DNA of 64,000 nt from Scenedesmus sp. PABB004 (Eukaryota). The notes under the pieces were generated by a model. The model was not told where the DNA came from and did not search any database. It saw nothing but the letters and a program-made list of their open reading frames with translations. The translations under genes and the position numbers were made by a program. The first letter of the stretch is position 1. Each line of letters begins with the position of its first letter. Location of the stretch: NCBI GenBank assembly GCA_014905635.1, contig CM026547.1:2666001-2730000 (forward strand), read 5' to 3'. Below are positions 13,205-52,712 of the stretch, piece after piece.

Positions 13205-14907
13205 TCACGCCCACCGCACCGCCACGCGCGGCTCCAGGCCCGCCAGCAGCTCGCGGACGCGCTGCGGCGGCGCCCTGCGCGTCAATCCCTCCAGGCTGAG
13301 CTCCTTGAGCGCCTGCAGGGGGCGGCGCGCGGCACCGCGCGGGCGCGCGAGCCGCGTGAGCGCCGGCGGTGCCGCCACGGCCTGGGGCGCTCGGCGGGCA
13401 GCGGCGGCGGCGGGGCGCGCACCGTGCAGCGCGTCAGCACGTCCAGGCTGGGCCAGTCGATTGCCCAGTTGTGGCCCAGCGACAGCGAGGACAGGCTGGC
13501 GCAGCCCGCCAGCTCGCTGGGCAGCGCGAGCGCGCCGCGCTTGTCGGACACGTTGTCCAGCTGTAGCGCGGCGAGGTGCGGCAATTGTCGCGCGAGCTGC
13601 TCGAGCAGGCGGGGCGTCGCGGCGAGGCCGGACAGCCAGTTGTGCGACGCGCTGAGGGCGGCCATGCCCCTCCAGGCGCACAGCGCCGCGGGGCAGAGCG
13701 CCGTGAGCTGGTTGTGCGCGGCGTCGAACGCGGTGAGGGCGGTGAGCTCGGCCAGCCCCGCGCTGAGCTCGGTGAGAGCGTTCCGGCTGAGGTCCAGCGC
13801 CTGCCAGGCGGCGCGGCGGCGACGCGGCGCGGGCGTGCCACGGGGCGCCGCGACGCGGGGGCGCGCCGCGCGCGGGCGCCCGCCCGCGCGCCGCCGCCGC
13901 ACCTCGAGCCCCACCAGGGCACGCCAGCCGCCCCAGGGCAGCACCCGGAGTGCGTTGTCCGCCAGCACGAGGCGGCGCAGCAGCCGCGGCGCGCCCGCCG
14001 TCTCCCGCAGCAGCTCCGCGACGCCGGCGTCGCCCAGGCCGCAGCCCGGCAGAACAAGCTCGCGCAGGCCCGTCAGTGCGTGCACCGCCGGCGGCAGGCA
14101 GCCGAGCGGCACGCGGCGCAGCTCCATTGACGTGAGCTGGGGCGCCCAGACGGTGGGGTCGAGCCACAGGCACGTGCGCGCGGCCGGCACGTCGTCGGCG
14201 TCGCCGCCGTCCGCGCCGCGAGGCGTGTGCGCAGGCCCGACTGCCAGGCGCCGCAGGCCTGCCGGGCGGCGCGGGAGGGGGCGTGTGGGCATCGGCGGAG
14301 GAGGCGCAGCAGCGCGCGCACGCCGCGCGCGCACCCACCCGGTGGCGCTGCAAGCCAGTCAGGGAGCCAGAGCGCCTGGAGGCTCGAGTCAGCGGCGAGG
14401 TGCAGGTGCTGGTCGCCTCGAGTGTGCCAGCCGCCGCCGCCGCGCGCGGCCTCGTGCGCCCCCCGCAGGCCGCCCAGCTCCTGCAGCTGCTCGCTGCTCA
14501 GGAACAGGCTGGCCAGGCGCGTGTGATCCCCGAGGGCAGCTTGCAGGGCGCCGTAGGAGCTCGTGGCGAGGAGGCACCTGCGCCGGCGAGCGGCGGCTTG
14601 CAGCGGCTTGCGACGCCTTGCATGCACTTCCAGGGGCGCCCTATTTAGTTTAGGCAGCCACGCACCGCCCCGACTTCTCGAGATGGAGCTCCCTCAGCGC
14701 CGGGAGACGGCGCAGCAGCGCAGCGAGGGCCGCTGGCTCGCCGCCGCCCCCTGGTTCGCCGCCGGTCGGCGCCAGAGCGAGCAGCACGGCTTCCGTACTT
14801 GCTCGCATGCGGGCGCTGGCAGCACGCAGTGCCCCGGCGTCGCGCGGCGGCAGGGACGACAGCAGCCGGCCGACCGCCTCCAGCGGGAGCTCGTCGAGCG
14901 CGCCCAT
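13205..14907 (-). CDS. F-box-like / leucine-rich-repeat protein, spliced
   Basis: N-terminal LDELPLEAVGRLLSSLPPRDAGALRAASARMR; LRRs LDLSRNALTEL, FDAAHNQLTAL, LSASHNWLSGL, LSLGHN; 3' end uncertain. Confidence 0.75.
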
Positions 14908-15156
14908 CCTGACTGGTGCGGCTCGTGCGGCTCGGCGTCGGCGTCGGTGTCGGGTGCGGGCGCTCTGGCCGGCGCGGCGGCGGGCGCGCGGGCTGGCGGG
15001 CGGTTTCGTGGCCTCGTCAGAACACGGCAGAAGCGCGTCGTGTGGAAGATTGTTCAAGCGCCAAGATTATTCAGACCTCAGTGGGCAGGTATTGCGAGTG
15101 CAAGTGCAACGGGACCGATCGGGTGCTCAGTGCTGAAACGCCCACACGGCCCTGCG

Positions 15157-15906
15157 TCATGCGACCCCCAAGCGCTGCCCGCCCTTGGCCTGGTGCTGCA
15201 CGCCGCCGCCGGACGCGTCGCACCACGCGGCGACGCGGCAGCCGCCGCCGCCGCCGCCGCCGCCCGCCGGCGCCAGCCCCGCCGCGTGCGGCGGCGGCGG
15301 CGGTCCCAGGCTGCAGCCGCTCGCGTCGCTGCACTGCGCCAGCTCGTCCGCGGCGAGGAGCTGGGGCAGCGCGCCCCCGCCCAGCGCCGGCGGCCCCCAG
15401 CCCTCCTCCTGCTGCTGCCGCTGCTGCCGCCGCCGCTGCTGCTGCAGCCGCTGCGCGCTGTTGCCCGCCCCGCGCTGCGCCGCCAGCTGCGCCGCCGCGC
15501 GGCGCGCCTGCTCCTGCTCGCTCTGCATGAGGTGCGCCTTGGTGGCCTGCAGCGAGAGGTGGGTCTTGAAGTCCCGCCCCGCGGGGTCGACCGGCAGCCA
15601 GGGGTCCTGCAGCACGCGGTAGTGGCACCCCAGCACCACGCCGCCGCCCAGCGGCGTGTCCGCCGCCAGCACCACGGCCGCCGCGCCGGCCGCCCCGCCC
15701 GCCGGCGCCGCCGCGCGCGCAGGCGCGAGCAGCGCCAGCAGGCCCTCGGCCTCGCCGCCGCCGTGTGCGCTGGCGTGCACGCCGGACGCCACGGCCGCCG
15801 GCGCCGGCGGCTGCAGGGCGGGCACGGCCAGCGGCGGCCGCGCGCAGGGCAGCCCCGTCGAAGCCGGGCACGCGGGCGAGCCCTCCGCCTGCTGCTGCTG
15901 CTGCTG

Positions 15907-15937
<31 letters not shown>

Positions 15938-16464
15938 TGCTGCACCTGCTGGTGCTGCTCCTGCTGCTGCGCCGGCTGCTCCTGCTGCGCCGCGGCGGCG
16001 GCGGCGGCCGCCGCCATAGCCTTGCGCATCTGCTTGAGCCAGCGCGCCAGGGCAGGCGCGGGCGGCAGCGCGTGCAGGCCCTCCATGGCGGCGCTGCCGA
16101 TGCCCAGGTATGCGGTCTGCACCGCGGCGCTCTGGTCGGGCAGCGCGCCCCTGCGGCCGGCGGCGCGGCGCGGCGCCGCGGCTCGGCCGGCCGGCCGCCG
16201 CCGGGCCGCGCGCGGGCGCTGCGGCGCGGCCGCTGGGGCGCGTGCCCCGCCCCCCCCCCCCCCCTGCACGCGCGCGCGCGCTCACCGGTGCTTGCGGGGT
16301 ATGGGCACCAGGTAGGCGCCCGCGTTGCTGGGCTCGGCGACAAAGTCAAAGGTGATGAGCTGCAGGTCTGGCTCCACCACCAGCGCCTCCTGCGTGAGGT
16401 CGACCGCCACCGACGCCCAGCCGCGGCTGCTCACGCCCAGCTTGATGCCCTGCGCGCCCGCGCC

Positions 16465-16497
<33 letters not shown>

Positions 16498-17150
16498 CGC
16501 CGCGCGGGCGGGCGGGCGGGCGCCCGGGCCGCGCCGCCGCGCCGCCGCGCGCACCCGGCTGTACAGCTCTCGCAGCAGCAGCCCCGCGGGCGTCGGCAGC
16601 ACTTCGATGGTGCCCCACAGCTCGTTCCCGCGCCAGGCGACCGAGAGCACCTGGTGGCTGACGTTGGGCAGGTTGAGGGACCGGAACCACGGGCTGGCGT
16701 ATGAGGGGTGGTGCAGCTCGCCCAGCGCCGTGCCGGCGCGGATGTGCGCCGCCCGGAAGCGCGACACCTCGCGCCGCAGCACGGCGCGCGGGTAGACCCG
16801 ATCATTGGTGTTCTTGGCGTCGGCGCGCGCAAACAGGCCTGTGCACGGCGCGCGGCGCGGGGTGGCTGCCGTGCTGCTGTGCGCTGCTTGGCGCGCCGGC
16901 GGCGGCGCCGGCGCCAGCGGCACAGCACACCGTGCACGATGAGGCGGCCCTGGTTGAGGCGCGTGGACAGCTCAAACAGCTCCGCCACCTGCGACGGCGC
17001 GGCGCGGCTCAGGCGCTGCGCGCGGCGCCAGCGCCGGAGCAGCGGCGCTCGCATCGCGGCGGCGCGGCGGCGCGCTCGGTTGCCCACCTCCTCGCGGCCC
17101 AGCTCGCACGCATCCCGCCTCCGCCACATCCCGCACAGCCCGCACGCCAT
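15157..17150 (-). CDS. T4 gp21-like prohead core (capsid maturation) serine protease domain with polyQ/Ala C-terminal extension; exons 17150-17088, 16988-16931, 16838-16555, 16449-16286, 16150-15157
   Basis: Four GT-AG introns join in one frame: RLIVHGLFARADAKNTNDRVYPRAVLRREV..ALGELHHP..VSHQVLSVAWRGNELWGTIEVLPTPAGLLLRELYSRGIKLGVSSRGWASV..LITFDFVAEPSNAGAYL. Confidence 0.9.
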
Positions 17151-17421
17151 GGGGCGGCCGCGCGGGACACGCCGCCTCTCAGCGGCGCGCCCCGGCCCTC
17201 TCCGATGCCGGGACGCGCAGCCCACCGTCCGTGAGCGTTCCTGGACACACGCTCCGCGGCGGTCCGGCTGCACCGGCCGGCGCTCGCCGCGGGACGCAGC
17301 CGGCAAAGTCTGCTGCTCTCGCGCGCCTGCCTCTGGGCGCGGCGGCGGCGCGCGGCACGGCGCGGCGTCCGGCGACTCGTGCGGCGGTGATGGAGCGACG
17401 GCCTGCGCCACGCCGCGGCGT

Positions 17422-18015
17422 GCGCGGCCGCGCTCCGGCGTCAGGGCGCAGCGGCGGCGTCCCGGCGCGGTGTGCGGGCGGCAGGGACCGGTGCCTGTGT
17501 GCCGGCCCGCAGCGCGCGCCGCCGCCGCCGCCGCGCAGCGCCGAGCCCCGCTGGCGCCGGGCGCGACCGAGCGGCCGTGGCCAGCGCAGGGCCACAGCTG
17601 CGAGCCGGCCCCGCGGGCGAGCGCTGTGGCGCGGCGCGCGGCGGCGCGAGGCGCGCCTGGCGGCACCGCCGCTCCCCGGCCCGCCAGCGCCGCGGCGCGC
17701 GGCCGCCCAGCGCGGGGCGGCGGCGCGGGGCCGTCCGGCTCGCGCAGGGCGGGCGCTGCGCGCGGCGCGGGGCCGACGATGTTTTGAGCGGACGAATCCG
17801 GCGCAGTGTTATGTGTCAGTCCTGATTTTTGACGCGCGGCTTTTTTCGCCTGCGCCGGCGAGCCCGAACGCCAGCCGCCAGCTGGCAACGACACTTGGAG
17901 CCGCGCAGCTTGCCAGCAATCGTCCGTCGGGGAGAGCGCGCCGGTGCAGGGGCCGCCCCCCGCCTGCGCGCGCGGGGCGGGCGCGCAGCGGCGTCCCAGC
18001 TGCACACAGCGAGCG
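17422..18015. repeat. Left arm of ~595-bp inverted duplication (partner 22621-23218)
   Basis: Reverse-complement match by eye, with about 4 substitutions and one 4-bp indel; relatively AT-rich core at 17780-17850. Confidence 0.95.
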
Positions 18016-18055
18016 CGGCGCGGTGGTGGCGCACATGATGCGGTTAAGCAAACTG

Positions 18056-18060
18056 TTACA
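18056..18060 (-). terminator. TGTAA polyadenylation signal for the gene ending at 18269
   Basis: ttaca on + strand, about 210 nt past the stop. Confidence 0.65.
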
Positions 18061-18268
18061 CCAGACCCGCTCCTCTTCGCTCAGCGCTCGTCGCTCGTCG
18101 CTCGTCACTCGGCCTCTGCCGGTCGGCCTCTGCCGAAGCCCTCTGACTATGGTCACGCTCCGCTGCGCTCAGACGCTCCACTGTGTATGGCGCTCGTTTG
18201 TCGCCCCGGCCCGTGCTGTGTGCGCCCGGCCCCCCGCCGCCGACCCCCCCCCCCTCTCCAACTCTCGC

Positions 18269-18768
18269 TCACTGCGGCTTGGCCGGGGGCAATAGCACCG
18301 CCGCGGCTGGCTTGCCAGGCGGTGCCGCGGACTGCCGTCTGAGCCCCGGCACGGCGGCCGGTGGTGGCGGCGCCAGGGGCTTGGCCACAACGGCAGGCGG
18401 CGCCACCAGCCAGGGGTCCAGCTGCACCCGCGGCGCGGGCCTTGTCACAGCGCACAGTGACGCCGCGGGCGCGGGGGCCACGGCGCCGGCCAGGCTGCGG
18501 GCGCGCTGCGCCGCCGCCGCCTGCTGCACCGCCGCCGCCGCCTGCTGGACTGCCGCTGCCTGCTGCGCCGATGCTGCCTGCTGCGCCGATGCTGCCTGCT
18601 GCAGCTGCGCGGCCTGCTGCAGCTGCGCCTGCTGCAGCTGCGCCTGCTGCAGCTGCGCCTGCTGCAGCTGCGCCTGCTGCAGCTGCGCCTGCTGCAGCGC
18701 TGCCAGCTGCACGAGGGGGTTCCTCGACACGGGCGCGCCCGGCACCGACGGGCGCTGCGCCTGCAGCA

Positions 18769-18809
<41 letters not shown>

Positions 18810-19107
18810 ATGAGCTGCAGCAGGGGCAGCTGCGCCAGCACGCTGGCGGGGCTGGCTGCTGCCGCCGCGCTGACGGCCGGCAGCATGGCGCTGGACGCGG
18901 GGGGCGGCGCCGGCGCCGGCTGCTGCAGCATCGCCGCGATCGCCGCCGCCGCCGCTGCCGCCGCCGCCGCGCCAGGGCTCTGCGACGCGTGCAGGCCCTG
19001 GCGGGGCATGCCGCTCGCAAAGAGCGCCGCCAGGCCCGCAGCGAAGCCACCGGCGTCCGGCGCGCCGCCGAGGAGGCCGGGCGCGAGGGCTGGCAGCGCG
19101 GCCGGCA

Positions 19108-19140
<33 letters not shown>

Positions 19141-19809
19141 TCGCGGAGCGCGCGGGGCCCGCGCCGCCGCCGCGGCAGAGCTGCTCCAGCGCCTGGCTGC
19201 CGGTGATGATCTCCAGCGCCTTGTCAAGCGCGCGCAGCGCGGGCGGCCGCGGCGCGGCGGCGGCGGGGCCGATGGCCGCCGCCATCATTCGGTCGCGCTC
19301 TGCGAGCTGCAGTATCAGCTGCACCTGCTCCAGGTAGGCCGCGCGGTTGCTCGCGTACCAGCCGTAGAGCATGCCCAGCTGCCCGGCCACGCCCTCCGCG
19401 CTGCCGGGGCCCTCCGCCGCGGCCACGGGCGCGGCCGCCTGCTGCGCCAGCAGCGCCGCGAGGCTCACGGCGGGCTCCAGCCCCGCGGCGCCGAGCGGCG
19501 CGGCGCCGAGCGGCGCGGCGCCGAGCGGCGCGCTCGCGGCGGCGCCCAGGAGCTGCGCGAGCGCGGGCGGCAGCGCGCCCGTCCCCGGCGCCGCCGTCAG
19601 CGCGCCGAGCGCCGCGAGCTGGCCGCCCAGGCCCCACGCGGGGGCTCCGGGGTGCGACCACAGCCCCTGCTGCCCAGCGAGCCCCGCCGCCAGAAGCGCC
19701 TGCGCCGCCGCCTGGCCGGCTGCGGCCGTCGCGCCGCCGCCCGGCTGGCCCGGCGGCCCGCCGCCGTCCGCCGCCCGCGCGCTGCCGCCGCTTCCGCGGC
19801 GCCGGCCGC

Positions 19810-19846
<37 letters not shown>

Positions 19847-22238
19847 GCCCAGCGCAAGCTGCCGCCCGCCCTGCCCTGGCTGGCCTGCGCGCGGCGGGCC
19901 TGCGCCGTCCGGGCCGCCCGGCAGCGGCGGGCCGTGCGGCGGCGGCGCGGGCAGCTCGTCGTCGCTCCCGCCCTCGCTGCTGGCCTGCTGGGAGCCGTCC
20001 TCAACGTCGCTCTCGTTGCCGTCGTCCGCGGCCGCGCCCGCAGACGCGCCGGCCGCCGGCGCGCCGGCCGCCGCGCTGGCGGCGCCCGCGCGCGCGGGCG
20101 ACCGGCACGGCCCCTGGCCCCCGCACTCGGCCTGCCGGCCGGGCGCCGCCTCGCCCGCGCCGCCCGCCGCGGCGGCCGCCGCGGCGGCCGTGCCCTGGCT
20201 GTCAAAGCCCGCGTTGTTGGCGCGGCTCGTGGCGGCGGCGATGGGCGCCGGCTTGGGCGCCCGCGGCTGGGGCGGCGGCGGTGGCAGGTGCGGCTTGACG
20301 GCGGCGGCGCCCAGCGCCGCAGGCTGGGCGGCGTGCGCGCCGACCGGCGCGGCGACCGCCTGGTCGGCGCCGGGGCCGCCCGCGGGGCGCGCGGGCGTCG
20401 TCGCCGCGCCGCCGCCCCCGGCAGCCTCGCCAGCGCCAGGAGCGCCTCCAGCCGCTGCACCGGGCGGCGGCTGGCCCGGCCGCCCCGACTGCTCGGGCGC
20501 CTGTGCCGGCGCCTGGTGGTTCGCCTGGGGGCTGTTGCTGCCCTGGGCCTGGGGCTTGGGGCTGTTGCTGGCCCGCATGCCGCCATCGTCGCTGCCGCCG
20601 CCGCCGTCGCCGCCGCTCCCGCTCCCGTTGCCGCTGCCGCTGCGGCTCCCGCTGCCGCTGCCACTGCCGCTGCCACTGCCACTGCCGCTCCCGCTCCCGC
20701 TCCCGCTCCCGCTCCCGCTCCCGCTCCCGCTGCCGCTCCCGCTCCCGCTGCCCTCGCCGCCAGACGCGCTGCCGGTGCCGTCACCGGCGCTCGCGTGCTG
20801 CCGGCCGCTGCGGTGGCGGTGTGGCTTTTCCGACGCGCTGCCCCTGCCGCTTGAGCCGCCGGCGCTGCCGGTGCTCTTGCGCTTGCGCTCACGCCCGCCG
20901 GCGCCGTCGCCGGGGGGCGCAGCGGGCAGCGCCGCGCCGGCGGCGGCGGCGCCCCGCTTGTGGCGCTTGCGGTTGTCGGCCCCGCCCGCTCCTCCGCCGG
21001 GGCCGCCGCGGCGCCCGCGTCTGCAGAGGCGGCGGCGACGGCCGCGGCCCCGCGCTCGGCCGCGCCCCCGGGGCGTCCTCGCCGCGCGCCGCCTCCTCCC
21101 AGGCGGAGGAGATGGGCTGGATGATCTTGATCCGCTTGCGCAGCCGCGCCGGCACCTCGGCCGGCAGCTCCACGGGCGCGGCCGCGTGCTTGCTGAGCAC
21201 GGCGCCGCCGGGCGACGGGCCGCGGCGCGGCGGCGGCGCGCCGCGCGCCGCGGCGGCGGTGCCGCCCTGGCCGTCGCGCGCGCCCGGGCAGCTGACCGTC
21301 TGGCGCGCGCCGCCCTCCACCGAGTCGGCAGGCGCGGGCACGGCCGCCGCCGCGGCGCGCGGGCCGCCCCGGGGCGGCCCCAGCCACGCGCCGGCCGAGC
21401 TGCTGGGCGCCGCGCCCGCCTGCGGCTCGCCGCCGCGCGGCGCGGGCCCGCCGGCGCCCTGGGGCTGCTGCTGCTGGGGCTCCTGCGGCAGCGGCAGCAC
21501 CTGCTGGGTGCTGAGGCTGGACCGCGTGCTCTGCTGCGACTGCTGCTGCTGCGGCAGCGCCGGCGCCGGCGGGTGCGGCAGCGCGAGGCCCGGCAGCGCG
21601 AGGCCCATCATCGCCGCCGGCAGGAGGAGCTGGCCCTGCAGCTGCTGCAGCAGCGCCGCCTGCGCCACCGCCGCGGGCTGCAGCAGCGCGGCCAGCGGCG
21701 CGGCCAGCGGCGGCGCGGGCGGCGCGGCAAACGCCGCCGCCGTCGTGGCGGCAAAGGGCGCGAGCCCCGCGCCCGCCACGAGCTGCTGCAGCAGCGGCAG
21801 CGAGCCCTCGCCCAGCCCCGCGGCGGCCGCGAGGGCTGCCGGCGGCAGCGCCGCCGCCATCGGCGCACTCGCCGCGGCGGCCGCTGCGGCGGCGGCCGCC
21901 GCCGCCGCCGCCCCCGCCCCGGCGGGGTGCCCGCCGGCACCGCCAAAGGCGGCCGCCCAGGCCCGCTTCTGGCTCTGGCCCGCCGCCGCCGCCGCCAGGG
22001 CCGCCCCGCCGGCCGCGGCCGGCGGGGCGCCGCAGGCGGCGCCGGCCGCCGCGGGCGCGGCCGGGCGCGGCGGCGGCATGGCCGCCGCCGGCGGCGGCAC
22101 GCCGCCCCCGCGCGCCGGCGGCGGCGGGCACGGCCCCGGCGGCTGCGCGGCGCCCGCGCGCCCCGCCGGCTGGCCGGCCGGCGGCGCCGCGGGGGCGGCC
22201 AGTCCCCGGTTCACTCCCTGCTCTGCCCCGGGCTGCAT
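18269..22238 (-). CDS. Large (~1300 aa) low-complexity Ala/Gly/Gln/Pro-rich, probably nuclear protein; frame broken near 21000-21070
   Basis: ORFs 22238-20889 and the frame ending at 18269 read as one protein; basic clusters RLRKRIK, RKRHKR, RERKRK; (GS)n, polyQ and (QQAQL)n; ordered patch GMLYGWYASNRAAYLEQVQLILQLAERD. Confidence 0.65.
20625..20752. repeat. Hexamer repeat (CCGCTC/CCGCTG/CCACTG)n encoding a (Gly-Ser)n linker on the - strand
   Basis: Directly visible. Confidence 0.85.
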
Positions 22239-22620
22239 GCCGTGGCGCGCCTAGGCGACCGCGCTGTGCGTGCGGCCGGTCGCCAGCATCTCGCGCCGCG
22301 CTGCGTGCCCACTCCCTGCGGCCGGCGCGAGCGGGCGGCGCGCGGTGCGGGAACGACCTGGCTCGGTTGGGGTCGGGCGAAGCCGCGCGCACGGCGGCCA
22401 GCGGTCGCGCACGCCGCGGCGCGGGCCGCGAGCGCCGAGAGGCGCCGCGGCGCTGCTGGGCGCCGGGCGGGGCGGGGGCCCCGCCCACGGCATCGGCACC
22501 GTCTAGCGGCCCACTCCGCAGCGCAGGCAGCGCCCGCCGCTGCACCAGCACCAACCTGCGCGCTCGTCTGCCGGCCCGCGCGACCTCTCCCGCGCCGCCT
22601 TGCGCTCCGTGCCGCGCGCT

Positions 22621-23218
22621 CGCTCGCTGTGTGCAGCAGGGACGCCGCTGCGCGCCCGCCCCGCGCGCGCAGGCGGGGGGCGGCCCCTGCACCGGCGCGC
22701 TCTCCCCGACGGACGATTGCTGGCAAGCTGCGCGGCTCCAAGTGTCGCTGCCAGCTGGCGGCTGGCGTTCGGGCGCCCTCGCCGGCGCAGGCGAAAAAAG
22801 CCGCGCGTCAAAAATCAGGACTGACACATAACACTGCGCCGGATTCGTCCGCTCAAAAAATCGTCGGCCCCGCGCCGCGCGCAGCGCCCGCCCTGCGCGA
22901 GCCGGGCGGCCCCGCGCCGCCGCCCCGCGCTGGGCGGCCGCGCGCCGCGGCGCTGGCGGGCCGGGGAGCGGCGGTGCCGCCAGGCGCGCCTCGCGCCGCC
23001 GCGCGCCGCGCCACAGCGCTCGCCCGCGGGGCCGGCTCGCAGCTGTGGCCCTGCGCTGGCCACGGCCGCTCGGTCGCGCCCGGCGCCAGCGGGGCTCGGC
23101 GCTGCGCGGCGGCGGCGGCGGCGCGCGCTGCGGGCCGGCACACAGGCACCGGTCCCTGCCGCCCGCACACCGCGCCGGGACGCCGCCGCTGCGCCCTGAC
23201 GCCGGAGCGCGGCCGCGC
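22621..23218. repeat. Right arm of ~595-bp inverted duplication (partner 17422-18015)
   Basis: e.g. aaaatcaggactgacacataacactgcgccggattcgtccgctcaaaa is the reverse complement of ~17782-17829. Confidence 0.95.
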
Positions 23219-23262
23219 CGCGCTCCGCCGCCGCCACCCGCCCGCGCGCGGGCGCCCAGTGG

Positions 23263-24862
23263 TCATGCACAGCTGAACAGCCGCAGCGCGTGCAGCGTCG
23301 CCTGGAGTGTGCCCGCAAACACGGCGTCCACGCCCCACGCGGCCTCCAGCCCCGCCGCGCTGGCAGCGAGCGCCAGGGCGTCGGGGTGGCCCGCGACCTC
23401 GGCGGGCGGGCCCGCGAGCAGCTGCACCGCGCTCGCGCGCAGCTGGCAGCGCGCGTCGGCGGCCGCCGCCTGCACGCCCTCCACGCTGTCGGTGCTGGAC
23501 AGCGGCGGCGGCGCGCCGCGGCCATCAGCGCCGTCCACCAGCATCACGCCCTGGGTGCCCTGCGCGCGGTGGGCGTGCCCAGCTCGGGGGCCGCCGGGGC
23601 GGCAGCCGCGCGCGCTGGCGGAGCCGCGCGGCGGTGGCGCCGCGCGCACCTGGCGCTGCGCGACGAGCACGCGCCGCTCGCCGTGCGTCGCCTCGCGCGC
23701 AAACACGCGCGCCGCGTGCTCCGGCCCCGTGCGGCCGCCCGCCTCCCAGTCGGTCACCTCGCTCAGCCGCACCAGCGCGGCGCGCGGGCCGGCGCCGCGG
23801 TTCCAGCGGCTCGACGCCAGCAGGAAGGCGCCGCTGCGGCGCGCGGCGGGCGGCGGGCACGGGGCGGCGTTGTCGCGCCGGCCCCAGCCCCAGCTGGACG
23901 CGTGCGCGTGCGCGCGCGGGGCGCGGCGGGCTCACCCCAGCAGCGCGACGTCCGCGCACATCGCCGCCTCGGTGGCGCCGTCCTTCTCCGCCAGCCCCGC
24001 CGCAGCCGCCTGCGCTGCGGCCGGCGCGAGGCACAGCCCCGCCTGCCCGCACAGGGCCAGCAGCTGGTGTGGCGGCAGCGGCCGGCCCAGCAAGTGGGCC
24101 AGCTGCGGCAGCGCGGGGCCCAGCAGCGCGACCGTGCCGTGGCCCACGCGCAGCACGACGTCCGCGGCGGCAGTGCCGCCGCCGCCGGCAGCGCCGTCGG
24201 CGACGGCCGGCGCGGCCGGCAGCGCCGACAGTTGAATCGTGATGGTCGCCTCGGCGCCGCGGGGGCCGCCCGTGGGCCGCACGGTCCAGCCGCGGAATGG
24301 CACCAGCGCGGCGGCGTCGTGCAGCAGGGCGAGCACGCCGAGGCGCGTGCTGCTGAAGCTCAGCCGCCCGGTCGCCGCGTCGTACGAGACGCCGCTGCGC
24401 GCGCGCCGCGCGGCGCCGGCCGTTGGGGCGAGCGGGCGGCGGGTCGCGCGCGCGTGCCCCCCGCGCCCCGCGCGCCGCGCACCTCACGCCCTCCTCGCAC
24501 CACGCGCCACGCCGCTCGTCCCACCACCCCACGCGTGGCGCCGCCGGCACCAGCAGCTGCGCCGGCAGCGCGACGGTGAAGCCCAGCGGCGGCGGCGCCT
24601 CGTCGGGCACCCAGGTCGCCGACTCCGGTGGTGCAGGGTACGGCAGCGACTGCAGGGCGCGCGACTGCGGCGACACCTGTGCGGGGCGTGCGCCGGGCTG
24701 TCGACGGCTCGGCCCGCGCTCCCACTGGCTGGCCAGGCGCACGCACGCCCCGCCCCGCCGCACCAGGCGCACGCTCCAGCCGCGCCCGTGCTTGGCCGGC
24801 GCCGGCAGCGCCAGCAGGTCCACCTGCAGCACCCCGCCGAGCGGCTGAAGGCTGGCGCGGCG

Positions 24863-24893
<31 letters not shown>

Positions 24894-26372
24894 TCGCTGC
24901 CATCGCCGGCGCCGGCGCCGCCGTCGGCCTCGAGCTGGGCATGCGGCCGCCGCTGCGACAGCCACCGGCGGCGCCCGCGGGCGGGTCGGCGCCGCGGCGG
25001 CTGCGCGCCGGGCGCCGCGCGCGCTCGCCCGTGCTGCCCCCGCCGCCGCCGCGCCCGCCCGTGCCTGCACGCGCAGCGCCACGCTCGCGAGTGCGATTGC
25101 CTTTGGGATCTCCACGCCGACGCCGAGGCCGCCAAAGTCGACCGCCTTGAGCCGCGGGTTGCGGTGGCTGTTGACCCACACCCCCAGTGCATGCGCGCCC
25201 GCGCCCGCGTGCAGCAGCACGCCGCCCCTGCCGTCCGCGTGCTCGTCGGCGCACTGCGGCGCGGGCGCGGTCGCGGCCGTGGAGGCGCGTGGGGCACACG
25301 AGCCCCCATGTGGCGCTCGGGCGGCGGCAGCCGCGGCGCGCCGGCGCCAGCGCGCTCACCAGCAGCACAGCGGCCGTGGCTGCGTCGACGGTCCGCGCCG
25401 CCTCCTGGTGCAGCCGCGCGGCGTCGGCGCGCGCCTGCGCGCTGGCCGCGGCCGCCGCGTCCGTGGCGGCGCACGCCCGCACCAGCAGCAGCTCAGCGGG
25501 GCCGCCCAGCGGCAGCGGCGGCGCAGCGCCGGCGCCTGGCTCCGCGTGTGGGCCCGCCGCGAGTGCGGCGAGCGCGGCCAGCGCCGCGGCCGCCGCAGTC
25601 TCCTCTGCTGCCAGCGCCAGGCAGTCGTCCGCCAGCTGCACGCACGCCTGCGGCCGGCCGTGCCGCGGCGCGCCGTTCGCTGCGCGGCCGCGCGCCCGCG
25701 GGCCGCCGCGCGGCCGCCGTCCGCCGTCCGCCGCGCCCGCACCTCGCACTGCTGCAGCGCCTCCTCGAGCGAGAGATCGGCGCCGTCGGCGAGGGCGCCA
25801 AGGAAGGCGTTGATGTCTGGCCGGCTGCGCGGGTGGGGGAGCGGGCTGCAGCGCAGCGTGCGCTGCCAGTCCGCGCCGGCCGCCTCGGCCGCCGCCGCCG
25901 CCGCGCGCTCCGCCGCCAGCTCGTGCAGGTGGGGCGCGAGCTCCAGCCTGCGCGCGCGGGCGGCGCGCGCGCGGGCGCCGGCGGCCTGCGACGCCCGGCC
26001 GCCGACGCTGCAGCGCGCCGCGCCGCGCGGGCCCATGCCGCGCGCGGGGCCGCCGCCGCGCACCGCTCCGCCGCCAGCCGCGCGTCGCGCGCCGCCTCGA
26101 GGTCCTGCAGCAGCTGGCGCCGCCGCGCCTCAACCTGCTCCGCCACGAGACGGGCCTCCTCCTCCTGCCGCGCGCGCTCTGCGCGGCGGCGTACCGGCAG
26201 CGCGGCGCGTCGGCGGCAGGCTCGGCGCGTCGCCCGGCGCGGCGCCGCGCCGCCGGCGGCGCGGCGCGCCGCGGGCGCGCGCTGCCTCACCCGCCTCTGC
26301 CGCGCGCGCCGCCTCCTCCCGCGCCGCGCGCGCTGCGGCAATCTCCTCCTTGGTACGCTTCTTGGGAGCCAT
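23263..26372 (-). CDS. CASC1: CASC1 / DNAI7 (IC97/FAP94-like) inner-arm dynein-associated protein, multi-exon
   Basis: MAPKKRTKEE coiled coil; DWQRTLRCSPLPHPRSRPDINAFL; LGVWVNSHRNPRLKAVDF; PRVGWWDERRGAWCEEGV; LVPFRGWTVRP. Confidence 0.8.
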
Positions 26373-26797
26373 GCCCCCGGCCCCGCCGCAGGGCCTGCCG
26401 CGAGCCGCGCAGCGGGCGCACACAGCGAGCGGGCGCCGCCGACAGCGCTCGCGCGTGCCGCCGCGCGCCGCCGCGGGCTGATTCGCCGGTTCCCGCCGCG
26501 CTGCCGAGGCCAGACCCTGCCACCGCTGTTGCGGCAGCCCTGCAGCGGCAGCCCTGCAGCCCTGCGGCGGTTGACCGGCCGCCCGCTCGCCGCGCGTTCG
26601 GCGCCGGCAGGCCGCGCGGTTGGCCGAACGCTCCAGCGGCGCACTGCGCCCCGCCCAACGCCCCCCTGCCGCGCCCAGCGCCCCGCGGCGCGCTGCGACG
26701 CGCAGCAGCAGCGGCAGCGGACGCGCGGCGCGGCCGCCGCCGCAGCCGTCCGGCCGGAGCGGCGCAGCGTCAGGCCGGCTCCCCGCCCCCCGGCAGG

Positions 26798-29700
26798 ATG
26801 CGGTGCTCTCTGTCGCGGCCTGGGCGCGGGTCGAGCAGCGGGTGCGCGCCCGCGCGCTCTGGGGGCGCGCTGCTGCCCTGCGGCCGCGTCCTGACGATCG
26901 CCACGCCTGCAGGGCGCGATCCACCGTGCAGCGCCGCGCGCCGGCCAGGGTGCGTGCCGCGCCGCCGCCGCCGCTGCCGCGTGCAGCGCGAGGGCCGGCC
27001 CGCGCGCAGGCCTCCGCGGCGGCCGCAGCCGCGCCTCCAGCAGGCGGGGTGCCCCCCTGCAGCACGGCCTGGCAGGCCGGCGCCGTCGGCCGCGCGCGGC
27101 CGCACGGCGCCCGCCGCGGCCGGCGGCAACCGCCGCCGCGCGGCGCCGCGCCGCGCAGGGCGTGGTGGCGTGCCGCGCCGGCCAGCCCGGCGGCGGCGGC
27201 TGGCTGCAGGCGGCAGTGCAGCTGCTGCAGTCGGTGCTGGGGGGCGACGCCCAGGTGCGGCCCAGGCCGGTCGCGCGGGCTGCGGCCCGCGCGGCTACGC
27301 TAGCCGCCGCGCAGCGCTGCTGCCAGCAGCAGCCTCCACCGGCCGGCCGGCCGGCGCGCCCCCGCCGCGCAGGATCCGGCCAGGGCGGCGCCTGGCGGCA
27401 GCAAGGGCGCGCCGGCGGGCGTGATCTCTGTCCTGCCCGAGCAGGAGGAGGGCGAGGCGCTGTCTGAGGAGTACACCGAGGCGATGCAGGCGCGCATGGG
27501 CACGAGCCTGACCTACCGGCACGAGGACGGCATCAACTACAACTTTGTGCTGCCCGACCTCATCGTGGGCAGCTGCCTGCAGGGCCCCGCCGACGTCGAC
27601 CGCCTGGCGGCCGAGGCGGGCGTGACGACGGTGTTCAGCCTGCAGGAGGACTGCGACATGGAGTACTTTGGGATTGACGTCGCGGCCATCCAGGCGCGCT
27701 GCAAGGAGGTCGGCGTCGCGCACGTGCGCTTCCCGGTGCGCGACTTTGACCCCTTTGACCTGCGCCTCAAGCTGCCCAAGGCCGTCGCGCGCCTGGCCAA
27801 AGCGCACAACCCCCGCCACGGCGTGGCCTACATCCACTGCACCGCGGGTGCGGCTGCGGCGCTGCCGCCAGCCGGGCTGCGCGGGCCGCTGCACGCGCGC
27901 CGGCCGCTGGTGACGGCGACCAGGCCCCACCGCCGCCGCCGCCGTCGCTGCCGCCGCCGCCGCCTCTGTGGCCGCCGCCAGGCCTGGGCCGCGCGCCGGC
28001 GACCGCGCTGGCGTACATGTACTGGCTGCGCGGCTGGCAGCTGCCCGAGGCGCTGCAGGCGCTCACGTCGGTGCGCACGTGCAGCCCGCGCATCGAGTCC
28101 ATCCGCGCGGCCACGGCCGACCTGCTGACGGACAGCAAGCCCATGGACGTCACGGTCGGCATCCGGCGGCGCGGCACCGCCACCAAGGCGCAGGTGGGCC
28201 GGCGCAGCGCAGCCGCCGCCGGGGCGCGCCGCGGCGGGCAGCACGGCGGCTGCGGGAGGCCGCCAGCGGTCGCTGAGCGCAGCGCCCGCGCTGCCGCTGC
28301 ACGGCCGCGCCGGCGGCGCAGGTGGCGGGGCTGGACGTTGGGTGGCACACGCTGCTGGACCTGCGTGAGAACCCCGACACGCACCGCCTGGAGGTGACGC
28401 GGTCGCTGCTGCCTGGGAGCTATCCGTTCAAGTTCATCCTGGACGGCACGTGGTGCGCCAACCACGACTACCCGACCTACGCAGACGGCGCCAACACCAA
28501 CAACATACTCACCGTCCTGCCGCGCGATGCCGCCGACAACGCGCTGCGCGAGCGCCTGCTCGACCCCGCGGGTGCGCGCGCGCGGCGCCGACGGCGGCCA
28601 GCCGCCAGCTACCCATCTGCAGCCTGGCCAGGCCCGCCTGCAGCGTGCAGCACAGCTCGTTCTGAGCCCAGCCACCTGACGGCGCGGCTGCCCACACGCG
28701 TCCCGCAGGCGAGCTGCGCGAGGCTGAGCGCGAGCAGCTGGCGGGCGTGATCTCTGTCCTGCCCGAGCAGGAGGAGGGCGAGGCGCTGTCTGAGGAGTAC
28801 ACCGAGGCGATGCAGGCGCGCATGGGCACGAGCCTGACCTACCGGCACGAGGACGGCATCAACTACAACTTTGTGCTGCCCGACCTCATCGTGGGCAGCT
28901 GCCTGCAGGGCCCCGCCGACGTCGACCGCCTGGCGGCCGAGGCGGGCGTGACGACGGTGTTCAGCCTGCAGGAGGACTGCGACATGGAGTACTTTGGGAT
29001 TGACGTCGCGGCCATCCAGGCGCGCTGCAAGGAGGTCGGCGTCGCGCACGTGCGCTTCCCGGTGCGCGACTTTGACCCCTTTGACCTGCGCCTCAAGCTG
29101 CCCAAGGCCGTCGCGCGCCTGGCCAAAGCGCACAACCCCCGCCACGGCGTGGCCTACATCCACTGCACCGCGGGTGCGGCTGCGGCGCTGCCGCCAGCCG
29201 GGCTGCGCGGGCCGCTGCACGCGCGCCGGCCGCTGGTGACGGCGACCAGGCCCCACCGCCGCCGCCGCCGTCGCTGCCGCCGCCGCCGCCTCTGTGGCCG
29301 CCGCCAGGCCTGGGCCGCGCGCCGGCGACCGCGCTGGCGTACATGTACTGGCTGCGCGGCTGGCAGCTGCCCGAGGCGCTGCAGGCGCTCACGTCGGTGC
29401 GCACGTGCAGCCCGCGCATCGAGTCCATCCGCGCGGCCACGGCCGACCTGCTGACGGACAGCAAGCCCATGGACGTCACGGTCGGCATCCGGCGGCGCGG
29501 CACCGCCACCAAGGCGCAGGTGGGCCGGCGCAGCGCAGCCGCCGCCGGGGCGCGCCGCGGCGGGCAGCACGGCGGCTGCGGGAGGCCGCCAGCGGTCGCT
29601 GAGCGCAGCGCCCGTGCTGCCGCTGCACGGCCGCGCCGGCGGCGCGCAGGTGGCGGGGCTGGACGTTGGGTGGCACACGCTGCTGGACCTGCGTGAGAAC

Positions 29701-30187
29701 CCCGACACGCACCGCCTGGAGGTGACGCGGTCGCTGCTGCCTGGGAGCTATCCGTTCAAGTTCATCCTGGACGGCACGTGGTGCGCCAACCACGACTACC
29801 CGACCTACGCAGACGGCGCCAACACCAACAACATACTCACCGTCCTGCCGCGCGATGCCGCCGACAACGCGCTGCGCGAGCGCCTGCTCGACCCCGCGGG
29901 TGCGCGCGCGCGAGCGCAAGCGCGCGCGCGGCGCCGGCGGCCAGCCCGCCAGCCGCCGCTCTTGCTGCCGGCCCGCGCGCGCAGCAGCCCCGCTGACGTG
30001 TGGGTGACTGCCGCTGCACCCCGCAGGCAAGCTGCGGCCCGAGGAGCGCCTGCTGCTGTCCAACCACCTGTGCCCCTGGAGCACGCACGACGTGCGCCTG
30101 CACCTGCCCGGCGACGCGCCGGAGCCTGAGGAGCAGGCAGCGGCGCCCGTCGCCAGCGGGCGAGCAGGCGAGGAGGGCAGCAGCTGA
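26798..30187 (+). CDS. SEX4: SEX4-type glucan (starch) phosphatase with an in-frame tandem DSP+CBM unit and putative transit peptide
   Basis: YRHEDGINYNFVLPDLIVGSCLQ, VRDFDPFDLRLKLP, HCTAG|LGRAP (CX5R), VAGLDVGW..YPFKFILDGTW..NTNNILTV, each present twice; 5' exons less certain. Confidence 0.88.
27414..29912 (+). repeat. Tandem direct duplication, copies 27414-28584 and 28740-29912 (period 1326-1328)
   Basis: Near-identical including introns; only an intronic substitution and a 2-bp intronic indel noticed. Confidence 0.97.
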
Positions 30188-45598: not shown

Positions 45599-48031
45599 AT
45601 GACCTGGCACGCGCCGGCGGCGTTCGCCAACGGCGGCGGCGGCGCCGGCGGCGATGCCTGCATGAAGGGCGTGGAGGACGCTGAGAAGCACGACGTTCAC
45701 GGTGGGGAGCTGCTGCTGGCACGACGCCGCGCACGGCGGCGCGCGGCCGCGGCACACGAGCGGCGCGGCTCGTCGCCGCTGCCGCTGCGCACGCACGCCG
45801 CGCTCGTCGCGCCCTGCGCCGCAGTCGAGGTGTGCCTCAAGTCCTGCAGCAACGCCAACCCCGCCGACATCCGGGCGCTCGTGGCGACGTGAGCGCGCAG
45901 CGCAGCGACAGCAGCCTGCCTGGAGCGGCGCCGCGCAGGGTCGCGCCCGGGCGGCCGCGCTGCTCGGCGCGCCAACACCAACACTCCCCCACCCGCGCCC
46001 GCCCGCCCCGGCAGGCGGCTGCAGGACAAGAACATCTGGCTGCACGACAGCAGCCTGTGGGACACGGTGGGCCGCGACGACCCGCTGCTCAACGCGCACG
46101 TGCAGAGCATACGCTGGAGCGACGTCGGTGCGCCGCGCCGCGCCGCGGGCTGCCCGGCGCGCGGCGGCGGGGGCGCGCGCTGCCGCGCCGCCGGCGCGCC
46201 GGCGCGCCGAACGCCGCGCTGCCGTCGCGCCGCGTGCGGCAGACGCGGAGCTGCTGGCGCGGGGGGCGAGCGTGCTGTTCAGCTTCCAAGTGCGGCTGCA
46301 CGTCTACGTCTACCAGGCGCGCCCGCGGCGCACACGGGCGGCGCAGCAGGCAGCGCGCGTGGCCGCAGACGCAGACGCAGGCAGCAGGCAGAGCGCGCCG
46401 GCGCGGCCCGGCGGGGGCGGGCGGTATGCTTGCGGAGCGCGCCGCCGCGCGCCGCGCGCCACGCGCCGCCACGCCCCCGCGCAGCTGAACGAGGAGGGCG
46501 GCGAGGACGACGACGAGGGCGAGGACGGCGTGGTGGCCTACCGCGAGTGGCAGCTGCCGGCGGCGGAGTTTGAGGGCGGCTGGGACGCGCTACACTACGA
46601 CAGCGCCATCAAGCGCCGCCTGCTGCGCTACGCGTCGTCGGCGCTGCTCTTCTCAGACCTCGGCGTCAGCAGCCAGCTCGTCAGCTGGAACAGGCGCGCG
46701 CAGGGCTGGCGCGGGCGCTGGCCGGCGGGGCGCGCGCGTGCGGCGCCGAGCCCGGGCCGCACGCGCCGCTGCGCAGGGTGGTGCTGCTGCACGGCCCGCC
46801 GGGCACGGGCAAGACGTCGCTGTGCAAGGCGCTCGCGCAGAAGCTGGCGGTGCGCATGGGCGACAGGTGCACCCGCGGCCCTGGCGCGGGCGCCCCGGCC
46901 GTCGCGGCGCCGCTCACGGGGGGTGGCCCGCCGCGCGCCGCGCCGCGCCGCCGCACAGGTACACGAGCAGCCAGCTGGTGGAGGTCAACGCGCACAGCCT
47001 GTTCAGCAAGTGGTTCAGCGAGAGCGGCAAGCTTGTGAGCAAGCTCTTTGCCGCCGTGACGGAGCTGGTGGAGGAGCCCGCGGCGCTAGTGTTTGTGCTC
47101 ATCGACGAGGTGGAGAGCCTCACCGCCGCGCGCAAGGTGCGCGCCGCGCCGCCGCCGCGCCGCCGCCGTGCTGCCGCGCCCTGGGCGGCAAGCAAGCACG
47201 GCCGCCGGGACGGCCGGCGCCCGGCTGACAGACGACGCGCGGCCCGCACGCGCGCGGCCCGCGCGCCCAGGCGGCGGCGGGCGGGGGCGAGCCGTCGGAC
47301 GCGATCCGCGCGGTCAACGCGCTGCTGACGGCGCTGGACGCGCTGCGGCGCCACCCCAACGTCATGGTCCTCACGACCAGCAACATCACGGAGGCCATCG
47401 ACCTCGCGTTTGTCGACCGCGCTGACATCAAGGCCTACCTGGGCCCGCCGTCCGAGGCGGCGCGCTACGAGATCCTGCGGTCGGGCGTGCTCGAGCTCGC
47501 GCGCGCGGGCGTCGTCGCGGGTGCGCGCAGTGCTGCCGCGGCGGCGGGGGCGCGGGGGCGCCGGCTTGGCGCCGCGCCGCGCCGCGGCGCCGGCAGCGGC
47601 GGCGCCGGCCGAGCGCCGCCGCGCCCGCGCCCGCTGCGCCGCGCCCGCTGCCGGCAGGCCTCTCCTCGCCCAAGGCGCTCATACCATACAAGGAGCTCTG
47701 CCTGCTGCCTGCGCCCGGCGGCGGCCCCGCCGCTGCCGCCGCGGCGGCGCCGGCGGCGGCGGCGCGCGGCGGCAGCAGCGGCAGCGACGACGCGATGAGC
47801 GAAGCAGAGGCGGCCGCCGCGGCGGAGGCGCAGCAGCTCAGCCGCGCGCTGGGCGAGGTCGTCGCGGCGTGCGCGGGCTTCAGCGGGCGGTCGCTGCGCA
47901 AGCTGCCCTTCCTCGCGCACGCCACCGCCGACAGCCTGCCCACGCCCGCGGCGCCGCTCGAGTTCCTGGCCGCCATGCGCGCCGCCGCCGCGCGCGAGGC
48001 CGCCGATCGCGCCGAGCTGGCGGCGCTGTAA
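45599..48031 (+). CDS. PCH2: Pachytene checkpoint protein 2 / TRIP13 AAA+ ATPase, multi-exon
   Basis: [102 protein letters not shown]. Confidence 0.97.
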
Positions 48032-48560
48032 CCGGCGAGCGAAGCAGGTCTCCTTGTTACCTCGGGGCAGCAAGCGCGCTCGCTCGCGCAGCTCTGCGCC
48101 GTGTCGCAGCGGCGGCCGCTGGCCCGTCAGACGGCAAACACCCGATCACGTGCGTTGAGGACGGAGAGTTTGCAAGGGCGGTGGCCTGCTGCCAGCATGC
48201 CGCGCTGCACCGACGACCGCGCCAGGCAGCACCGATGACAACTGAGCCGGGCAGCACCGAGAACGACCGAATCAGGTCCGACCCCCAGTTTGTGGGTTTG
48301 TGGGTTCCCCCGCCGCCACTGGCTGTTCGTACTCCATCCCAGCACGCGCCGTGCCGTGCAGCAAAAGTCACCAGCCAGGCGTGTTTTTTCATCGTTCGTT
48401 CAGCTAGTTGGACCGCCGCAGCCGGTGCGTCACGCAGACCGCCGGCGCTCGCGCGCACGGGCGGGGCCTCCGCGGGCGGCGCGCGCCGGCCTTGGGCGGC
48501 GCACGCCGTGGCCCCCGTGCGTTGCGCGCCCGAAACCTGTGCCACTGACCCTCGCTCGGG

Positions 48561-52347: not shown

Positions 52348-52564
52348 GGCCGCCGCGGCGGAGGCGCAGCAGCTCAGCCGCGCGCTGGGCGAGGTCGTCG
52401 CGGCGTGCGCGGGCTTTAGCGGGCGGTCGCTGCGCAAGCTGCCCTTCCTCGCGCACGCCACCGCCGACGGCCTGCCCACGCCCGCGGCGCCGCTCGAGTT
52501 CCTGGCCGCCATGCGCGCCGCCGCCGCGCGCGAGGCCGCCGACCGCGCCGAGCTGGCGGCGTTG
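52348..52564 (+). pseudogene. Orphan 217-bp direct copy of the PCH2 last-exon coding end (47812-48028)
   Basis: [42 protein letters not shown] repeated with about 4 substitutions; no upstream PCH2 exons. Confidence 0.9.
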
Positions 52565-52712
52565 CAGCAGGCCGGCGCGGGTCCGTCGGGCGGTGCGCGC
52601 AGGGCTCTGGCAGGCTCGAGCCCTGCCGCGGCGCAGCCCGCAACCGCCGTCCGGTCATCGCCCGGCGCACACCTGCCAGGCCGGCCGGCCGCCCCGGGCG
52701 CTGCGGGGAAGC

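Follow-up and report, generated by a model that had tools for sequence, protein, structure and literature searches.

The window analysed here, 64,000 nt of contig CM026547.1 from Scenedesmus sp. PABB004, includes a protease gene, a gene for a low-complexity protein (gene X) and a CASC1/DNAI7-like gene, with gene X enclosed between two long inverted arms (Table 1). The host, a green alga, has a compact genome of 79% GC. The start of the protease gene (ATG 17150) was fixed by comparison with homologues; the CASC1-like stop was placed from the ORF and a codon model without a homologue (homologue searches found none), and the CASC1 label derives from a single Pfam Casc1_N match (E 1.5e-10). Gene X had been described as one complete gene enclosed together with its TGTAA. 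The signal is present, and is the only TGTAA in 14000-27000, but gene X switches frame near 21070-20990 and is not one ORF as assembled, a break that requires either an indel or a non-canonical intron in this region. A full HMMER search for relatives of gene X returned 34 rows, of which three were strong relatives, one was a weak relative and 30 were matches to the Gly/Ser repeat; word-index homologue searches with gene X and CASC1 were blank, and the ESM Atlas gave no usable match to the gene X motif.

Table 1. Features of the gene X locus, in coordinates of the 64,000-nt window.
Feature	Position	Strand	Length	Description
Protease gene	15157-17150	-		Peptidase_S77 (T4 prohead protease) family; single-copy nuclear gene, conserved in chlorophytes
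Left arm (D)	17422-18015		594 nt	Non-coding; two copies in the genome
AT-rich core, left arm	17776-17855			GC 0.54; T-tracts all on + strand; no TGTAA; putative promoter role
Short reciprocal duplication d'	18011-18023		13 nt	First 5 nt common with inner end of left arm
TGTAA polyadenylation signal of gene X	18056-18060	-		About 30 nt from inner junction
Gene X (enclosed)	18269-22238	-		Low-complexity protein of ~1300 aa, no assigned function; ATG 22238
Gene X conserved motif	near 19150-19410			One motif, common to Scenedesmaceae-type proteins
Right arm (D')	22621-23218		598 nt	Left arm in reverse complement, with a 4-nt insertion and 4 substitutions (alignment)
AT-rich core, second copy	22785-22864			In right arm
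Short reciprocal duplication d	23213-23225		13 nt	First 6 nt common with outer end of right arm
CASC1/DNAI7-like gene	23263-26372	-		Stop 23263-23265, 44 nt outside right arm; probably one gene

Alignment of the assembled sequence confirmed the near-identical inverted arms, which are separated by 4605 nt and differ by four substitutions (17734, 17781, 17888 and 17998 in left-arm coordinates) and one 4-nt indel (after 17861). The distances given in the original prediction also hold, at 271 nt from the left arm to the protease ATG, and at 382 nt and 44 nt from the right arm to the gene X ATG and the CASC1-like stop, respectively. The outer 312 nt of the arms are free of differences; such clustering, a possible sign of conversion, is not significant under uniform placement (P = 0.14), but is significant in the second inverted pair considered below (P = 0.009). 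A genome-wide search found two full-length copies of the arm in the 40-Mb genome, the remaining 61 matches being short, mostly of 67-85% identity and confined to the GC-rich outer part. The arm is therefore not the high-copy dispersed element that had been named as one of the findings that would refute the proposal; its sequence is otherwise unique and belongs to no repeat family, as is expected of duplications flanking an inversion, and the locus as a whole consists of a unique segment with the same sequence inverted at both ends, the configuration of dupINV and dupINVdup rearrangements. No 20-codon window in the left arm scores above 3 in any frame, an Rfam search for structured RNA gave no match in the arm (the 13 matches returned were weak, scored below the gathering threshold and lay outside both arms), and the folding z-score of the arm is -0.03.

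The second inverted match that had been reported, between 18011-18023 and the reverse complement of 23213-23225, is likewise present, giving the overall geometry A-D-d'-X'-D'-d-E. The 13-mer occurs at six places in the window and is therefore of low complexity. Empty-site tests of four histories yielded a 13-bp match for the inversion originally proposed vs 7, 7 and 7 bp for the others; under three nulls of 3000 draws each, P(≥13) was 0.0023, 0.0027 and 0.0097, and P(≥7) was 0.22-0.39. A second breakpoint duplication, as in dupINVdup, would be represented by a 13-bp match in low-complexity sequence with a null P of 0.002-0.01. Among eight junction tests at two other inverted pairs, one likewise gave a 13-bp match, located in a GCC run, and the best matches for a reciprocal short duplication at the second large inverted pair were of 4-5 bp.

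The arm had been proposed to represent a bidirectional promoter originally shared by the protease gene and gene X. The outer arm (17422-17775) scores as protease-upstream and not as CASC1-downstream sequence, a score equalled by only 6% (k=2) or 3% (k=3) of 118 3'-type segments, and four control segments behaved as expected under the 5'/3'-type models. The core motif GCGTCAAAA, picked after seeing the data, is found outside the arms at five places in 864 kb, four of them in head-to-head gaps, with two of these four being copies of each other. These observations are consistent with a shared promoter, but three others speak against it: none of 85 head-to-head gaps, vs 8 of 79 tail-to-tail gaps, has a core GC as low as the 0.54 of the arm (gaps labelled automatically by a rough codon model with AUC 0.68-0.86, and not by annotation); the implied ancestral ATG-to-ATG distance of 1247 nt is long, near the 95th percentile for head-to-head gaps; and the inner arm is 3'-type at k=3 (1% of 5'-type segments score as low), although neutral at k=2. 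TGTAA marks 3' ends in this genome, occurring in 27 of 79 tail-to-tail gaps vs 2 of 85 head-to-head gaps. We posit that the arm may hold promoters.

Taken together, the locus is best interpreted as a recent 4.6-kb micro-inversion in which both breakpoints were unequally duplicated (dupINVdup, 594 nt and 13 nt), a history that we regard as somewhat probable and as the best of the four, because only an inversion in this sense accounts for the 13-bp reciprocal junction match. This is the sole junction match above chance, and the 5'-type outer arm and the two-copy state of the arm are in keeping with the original proposal of an inversion with a duplicated breakpoint, whereas the AT-rich core and the mixed inner arm fit it less well. 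In the putative ancestor, the protease gene and gene X would have been head-to-head across a single arm, with CASC1 tail-to-tail to gene X. The two junctions, with apparent microhomology of 5 and 6 nt, could stem from two template switches during replication or from the repair of staggered breaks; gene X would thereby have been turned round, with a copy of the arm placed upstream of both the protease gene and gene X, and CASC1 would have lost its original 3' end. The structure is most likely a mutation scar, and not a working switch.

Local inverted copy-paste, in which gene X was never inverted and all four genes were always on the same strand, is a possible though less probable history. The arm would be native to one side (between the gene X 3' end and the protease gene, or between the CASC1 3' end and gene X), and templated repair or a small circle would have placed a reversed copy 4.6 kb from it; the identical sequence would result if such a circle were closed and later opened at the same two microhomologies. 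In the 864 kb surveyed, local duplicates comprise three inverted pairs and four direct pairs (the latter of 166-1171 nt, with gaps of 148-4864 nt), and because direct copies are as common as inverted ones, plain copy-paste stays a rival. The reconstructed gaps are of ordinary size (522/1024 or 1118/426 nt), the AT-rich core would suit a tandem gap containing both terminator and promoter, and a 5'-type outer arm combined with a 3'-type inner arm (k=3) would suit an arm native on the left. However, that placement leaves CASC1 without an AT-rich 3' region (the core upstream of gene X has a GC of 0.74), and an arm native on the right would make the outer arm the CASC1 3' UTR, which its 5'-type score disfavours; in either case, the 13-bp match must be a coincidence (~0.003), or else requires a third switch or a circle whose opening and closing points were no more than 13 nt apart. 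An inversion in the other sense, with the arm as a terminator region that separated the 3' end of gene X from that of CASC1 and was duplicated when the protease/gene X head-to-head gap was split, appears quite unlikely: it would agree with the terminator-like composition of the core, with a typical head-to-head ATG distance (653 nt), and with the 5'-type character of the unique stretches upstream of both the protease gene and gene X, but the empty-site match of 7 bp is at chance level, the 13-bp match is left without explanation, the outer arm is not 3'-type, and the arm has no TGTAA.

Pack-MULEs and other elements with long TIRs carry host gene sequence between long inverted ends and are flanked by target-site duplications of 8-11 bp. 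The near-identical inverted ends around gene X, and the ability of such arms to recombine, raise the question of a working element, either a Pack-MULE-like transposon with captured gene X or an invertible switch that flips it; we consider this very improbable. Unlike in a Pack-MULE, the arm exists in two copies only and has no copy family, and the examined flanks contain no direct repeat around the whole element, in agreement with the original report that no target-site duplication is visible. Searches of the genome that ignore introns gave no match to MULE transposase (PF10551) or tyrosine recombinase (PF00589). Furthermore, a second large inverted pair 115 kb away is unrelated in sequence to these arms, and splits a gene in half. 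The suggestion that the 4.6-kb segment could flip has no support beyond the geometry of the arms; since a flip via the arms would leave gene X behind the same arm sequence, little would change.

An assembly artefact, with a single true arm and a second created by the assembler, or with a heterozygous rearrangement merged into one path, is unlikely. The assembly seems to retain indel errors, as the frame changes where homopolymers are common, at about 1040 and 2055, and inside gene X; several long duplicates have identical interiors; and diploidy is reported for roughly one in four Scenedesmaceae strains (PMC13315243), which was counted in favour of an artefact. On the other hand, the substitutions that distinguish the arms speak for two genuine copies, megabase contigs (C1, 4.85 Mb) would imply long reads spanning a 600-nt repeat, and merged haplotypes of a simple inversion would require a junction found in neither.

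The kind of mutation represented by a dupINVdup at this locus is ordinary, and is already known from Chlamydomonas, humans and Drosophila. In Chlamydomonas reinhardtii CC-503, chromosome 16 carries a dupINVdup with a 508-kb inversion and duplications of 3.7 and 2.3 kb (PMC9940879). As in that report, the host here is a green alga and a transposon is not needed, and under the best reading a unique segment would likewise be inverted with both flanks duplicated in inverted orientation; by contrast, the CC-503 event is a laboratory mutation with a known ancestor, whereas the present segment is of 4.6 kb with duplications of 594 and 13 nt, and its ancestor is a reconstruction. In the Drosophila melanogaster group, 17 of 29 inversions have inverted breakpoint duplications, which were ascribed to staggered breaks; the median breakpoint duplication in D. 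yakuba is 321 bp, and often one side alone is clearly duplicated (PMC1885836). Unique sequence duplicated in inverted orientation at the breakpoints is common to those inversions and the gene X locus, but the Drosophila inversions are large, outgroup-polarised and have copies of ~88% identity, as opposed to a single gene, 99% identity and no outgroup here (PMC1885836). Complex structural variant classes defined in humans include dupINV, dupINVdup and interspersed duplication (iDUP); in these terms the best reading is dupINVdup and its main rival iDUP, although the human variants are much larger and were called from reads against a reference (PMC5338099).

Taken by itself this locus, a structural variant that is small and of a known class, carries little weight; it would carry more if it exemplified a process acting across the genome, in view of the second pair 115 kb away and the shuffled neighbourhood in relatives. 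A doubtful extension is that frequent kilobase-scale duplicative inversions are reordering the genome one gene at a time, and that here two formerly coupled genes each gained a copy of a bidirectional promoter, with the spare halves pointing in antisense direction into the 3' ends of CASC1 and gene X. A single large pair, found without ascertainment in 800 kb, would scale to perhaps tens across the genome. If true, the locus would show how shared regulation can give way to independent regulation and how new antisense transcription can arise, and frequent duplicative inversions could account for gene order that is shuffled vs relatives; should many such events be confirmed, the alga would be handy for measuring how micro-inversions copy regulatory DNA.

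Gene order was compared with 85 viral and metagenome loci retrieved by protease alignment (one batch: 80 kept of 179). Gene X and CASC1 are absent from all 85 at E ≤ 1e-4, scans of genome and viral contigs with the gene X motif gave no match, and among genome contigs the protease had a single match (33%, in a bacterial MAG). Accession look-ups found no adjacent protease and gene X in one named genome, and a limited literature search on inversions or inverted repeats in Scenedesmus/Tetradesmus nuclear genomes returned mostly organelle papers, so that earlier reports are possible. The only loci sharing several neighbours, L025 and L057, have these in shuffled order and orientation, which suggests that local inversions do occur in this neighbourhood; in both, a TruA-like gene is located upstream of the protease gene.

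Gene X is enclosed by two inverted non-coding arms, which differ by four substitutions and one 4-nt indel when the left arm is aligned with the reverse complement of the right. The structure is real in the assembly, as the original prediction held. The genome contains two full-length copies of the arm (the less GC-rich inner 276 nt has exactly two genome matches). The predicted second, 13-nt inverted match at the other junction was likewise confirmed, overlapping the inner end of the left arm by 5 nt and the outer end of the right arm by 6 nt. The 13-mer occurs at six places within the window. A codon model, for which homology-confirmed exons served as the training set, detected no coding signal in any frame of the arm, and neither Rfam nor folding gave any sign of structured RNA.

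Features of the gene X locus and of the second inverted pair
Feature	Coordinates	Strand	Remarks
Peptidase_S77 gene (T4 prohead protease, PF03420)	15157-17150; ATG 17150	-	Left of left arm; nuclear, intron-bearing, single-copy
Left arm	17422-18015		Inverted relative to right arm
Gene X	ATG 22238; stop 18269; TGTAA at 18056	-	Between arms; low-complexity protein
Right arm	22621-23218
CASC1-like gene	23263-26372	-	3' end right of right arm, stop 44 nt outside it; basis: Casc1_N domain match
Second inverted pair, 1250 nt	G000:C1:2803600-2804849 / 2807727-2808975 (L123:3600-8975)		G000, genome assembly; L123, extract of contig C1; 99.6% identity, 2877 nt apart, two genome copies

The gene X structure most likely belongs to an already described class of duplication-flanked rearrangement. 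Published reports describe inverted duplications of otherwise unique sequence, as at gene X, at 17 of 29 inversions in the Drosophila melanogaster group (PMC1885836), and dupINV, dupINVdup and iDUP as standard classes in human data (PMC5338099). An account of Chlamydomonas CC-503 gives a dupINVdup of 508 kb with flanks of 3.7 and 2.3 kb (PMC9940879), compared with the 4605 nt between the ~600-nt arms here. For Chlamydomonas mutation-accumulation lines, a 5.2-kb inversion is reported, as are non-TE inversion breakpoints without microhomology (PMC9977147); the latter speak slightly against a route through microhomology.

Each arm end comprises one native and one new junction, hence four possible ancestors: the protease gene and X head-to-head across a single arm, followed by inversion of X (model 1); the arm native on the left with a reversed copy inserted on the right (model 2); the arm native on the right with a copy inserted on the left (model 3); or an inversion in which the arm originally separated X from CASC1, lying between their 3' ends (model 4). 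The two flanks that each model makes former neighbours were joined by a match of 13 bp under model 1 and 7 bp under each of the others. Against random genomic partners, at least 13 bp was reached in 0.23%, 0.27% and 0.97% of 3000 draws (three nulls) and at least 7 bp in 22-39%, although among eight junction tests made on two other inverted pairs one likewise gave 13 bp, within a GCC run. We give a little better than an even chance to a recent micro-inversion with duplicated breakpoints: the protease gene and X would have stood head-to-head over one arm, and X would then have inverted through two junctions with 5 and 6 nt of microhomology, which would account for the whole structure. The inversion originally predicted therefore has the best junction match, but relatives do not polarise the event. 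The opposite inversion (model 4) is highly improbable, its 7-bp match being of a length common among random draws. A plain inverted copy-paste of the arm, with X left in place, is rather unlikely given the same short match for models 2 and 3; in its favour, model 3 would yield an identical sequence if it ran through a small circle that closed and reopened at these microhomologies, and the local direct pairs described below indicate that copying without inversion is as common as copying with it.

An assembly artefact is improbable: megabase contigs and the substitutions between the arms argue against it; in its favour are residual indels in the assembly and the possibility that algae of this family are diploid (PMC13315243). 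A working element, either transposon or invertible switch, is very unlikely. The arms have no further copies, the flanks contain no target-site duplication, and an intron-blind search of the assembly matched neither PF00589 nor PF10551, in line with the original remark that no target-site duplication or transposase was visible. Arms of 600 nt at 99% identity could recombine occasionally, but a flip would leave X behind the same arm sequence, and the suggestion that the 4.6-kb segment flips gained no support as a regulated process.

To survey local duplicates, 864 kb, or 2% of the genome, was aligned with itself. With minima of 80 nt and 90% identity this gave 14 pairs: four inverted and ten direct rows, of which six direct rows are overlaps within tandem arrays. 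The local pairs comprise three inverted ones (the gene X arms, the 1250-nt pair on C1 and a 116-nt pair on contig C2) and four direct ones. In the 1250-nt pair, four of five differences fall within the inner 170 nt; its arm appears to comprise a gene's 3' half together with the downstream gap, so such events are not aimed at promoters, and by our reading the frame of this gene appears to run through the left inner junction. Within the window, a 1.18-kb tandem duplicate (27411-28588 / 28737-29917, 99.6%) lies inside a phosphatase/carbohydrate-binding gene, presumably starch-phosphatase-like. An intron and short exon close the first copy, similar to those that follow the second but clearly distinct from them, and the first copy then continues in frame into the second. 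The duplication would be an older one whose core has been homogenised, and the gene may thereby have two domains. A direct duplicate of 214-225 nt (47812-48036 / 52348-52572; 97-99% identical, 4.3 kb apart) lies at the ends of coding stretches.

Evidence that the arm served as a shared promoter is mixed. The codon model labelled 85 gaps in the 864 kb head-to-head and 79 tail-to-tail; TGTAA, absent from the arm, occurs in 2 and 27 of these, respectively, and the labels therefore carry signal. The outer 354 nt of the arm score as protease-upstream, not CASC1-downstream, sequence (6% and 3% of 118 3'-type segments score equally high; four control segments behaved), and a promoter facing the protease gene is likely. 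The predicted bidirectional promoter fared less well: the inner 160 nt score as neutral with k=2 but as 3'-type with k=3, and the GC of the AT-rich core (0.54) is equalled by none of the head-to-head and eight of the tail-to-tail gaps. The ATG-to-ATG spacing under model 1 would be 1247 nt, near the 95th percentile of head-to-head gaps. The core motif GCGTCAAAA, picked post hoc, occurs outside the arms at five places, four of them in head-to-head gaps, two of these being mutual copies. One head-to-head gap (C1:2637720-2637870) contains a ~45-nt inverted duplicate with the motif in each copy, a miniature of the pattern proposed for the arms.

The genome (40 Mb, 80 contigs, ~79% GC) has its closest named homologues in Tetradesmus obliquus, Scenedesmus sp. 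NREL 46B-D3 and Hariotina reticulata, which places the host among the green algae of the Sphaeropleales. Metagenome contigs L025 and L057, from more distant algae, keep the neighbourhood in different order and orientation, sharing TruA-like, dynein light chain, RPL13 and PCH2-like ATPase genes (named from aligned sequences), nearly intron-free there; L025 also has the phosphatase gene, with one copy of the unit duplicated in the window. X and CASC1 had no match in either contig at E<=1e-4, and the contigs point to local shuffling. X has a conserved motif of ~80 aa (19150-19410, minus strand) that just four other proteins share in a set of 1.84 billion representatives, and that has no Pfam or Atlas assignment. 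The frame of X changes near 21070-20990, and otherwise plausible genes show similar apparent changes at ~1040 and ~2055. All three lie in or close to runs of G/C, and indels left over in the assembly are the likely cause.

The protease gene is probably more interesting than the inverted repeat. Every named member of 30 retrieved relatives is a chlorophyte; identity across chlorophytes is 45-64%, and that to phage-like relatives 33-45%. Chlamydomonas has a published listing of the family, without known role (PMC8643629). The homologues carry a cluster of cysteines at the N-terminus, possibly a lipid anchor. T. obliquus model P0001 fuses the protease with an LRR gene, and an LRR gene also comes next after the protease in the window. 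Read by eye, introns at ~1500 and ~7860 of the window appear to begin with GC, not GT.
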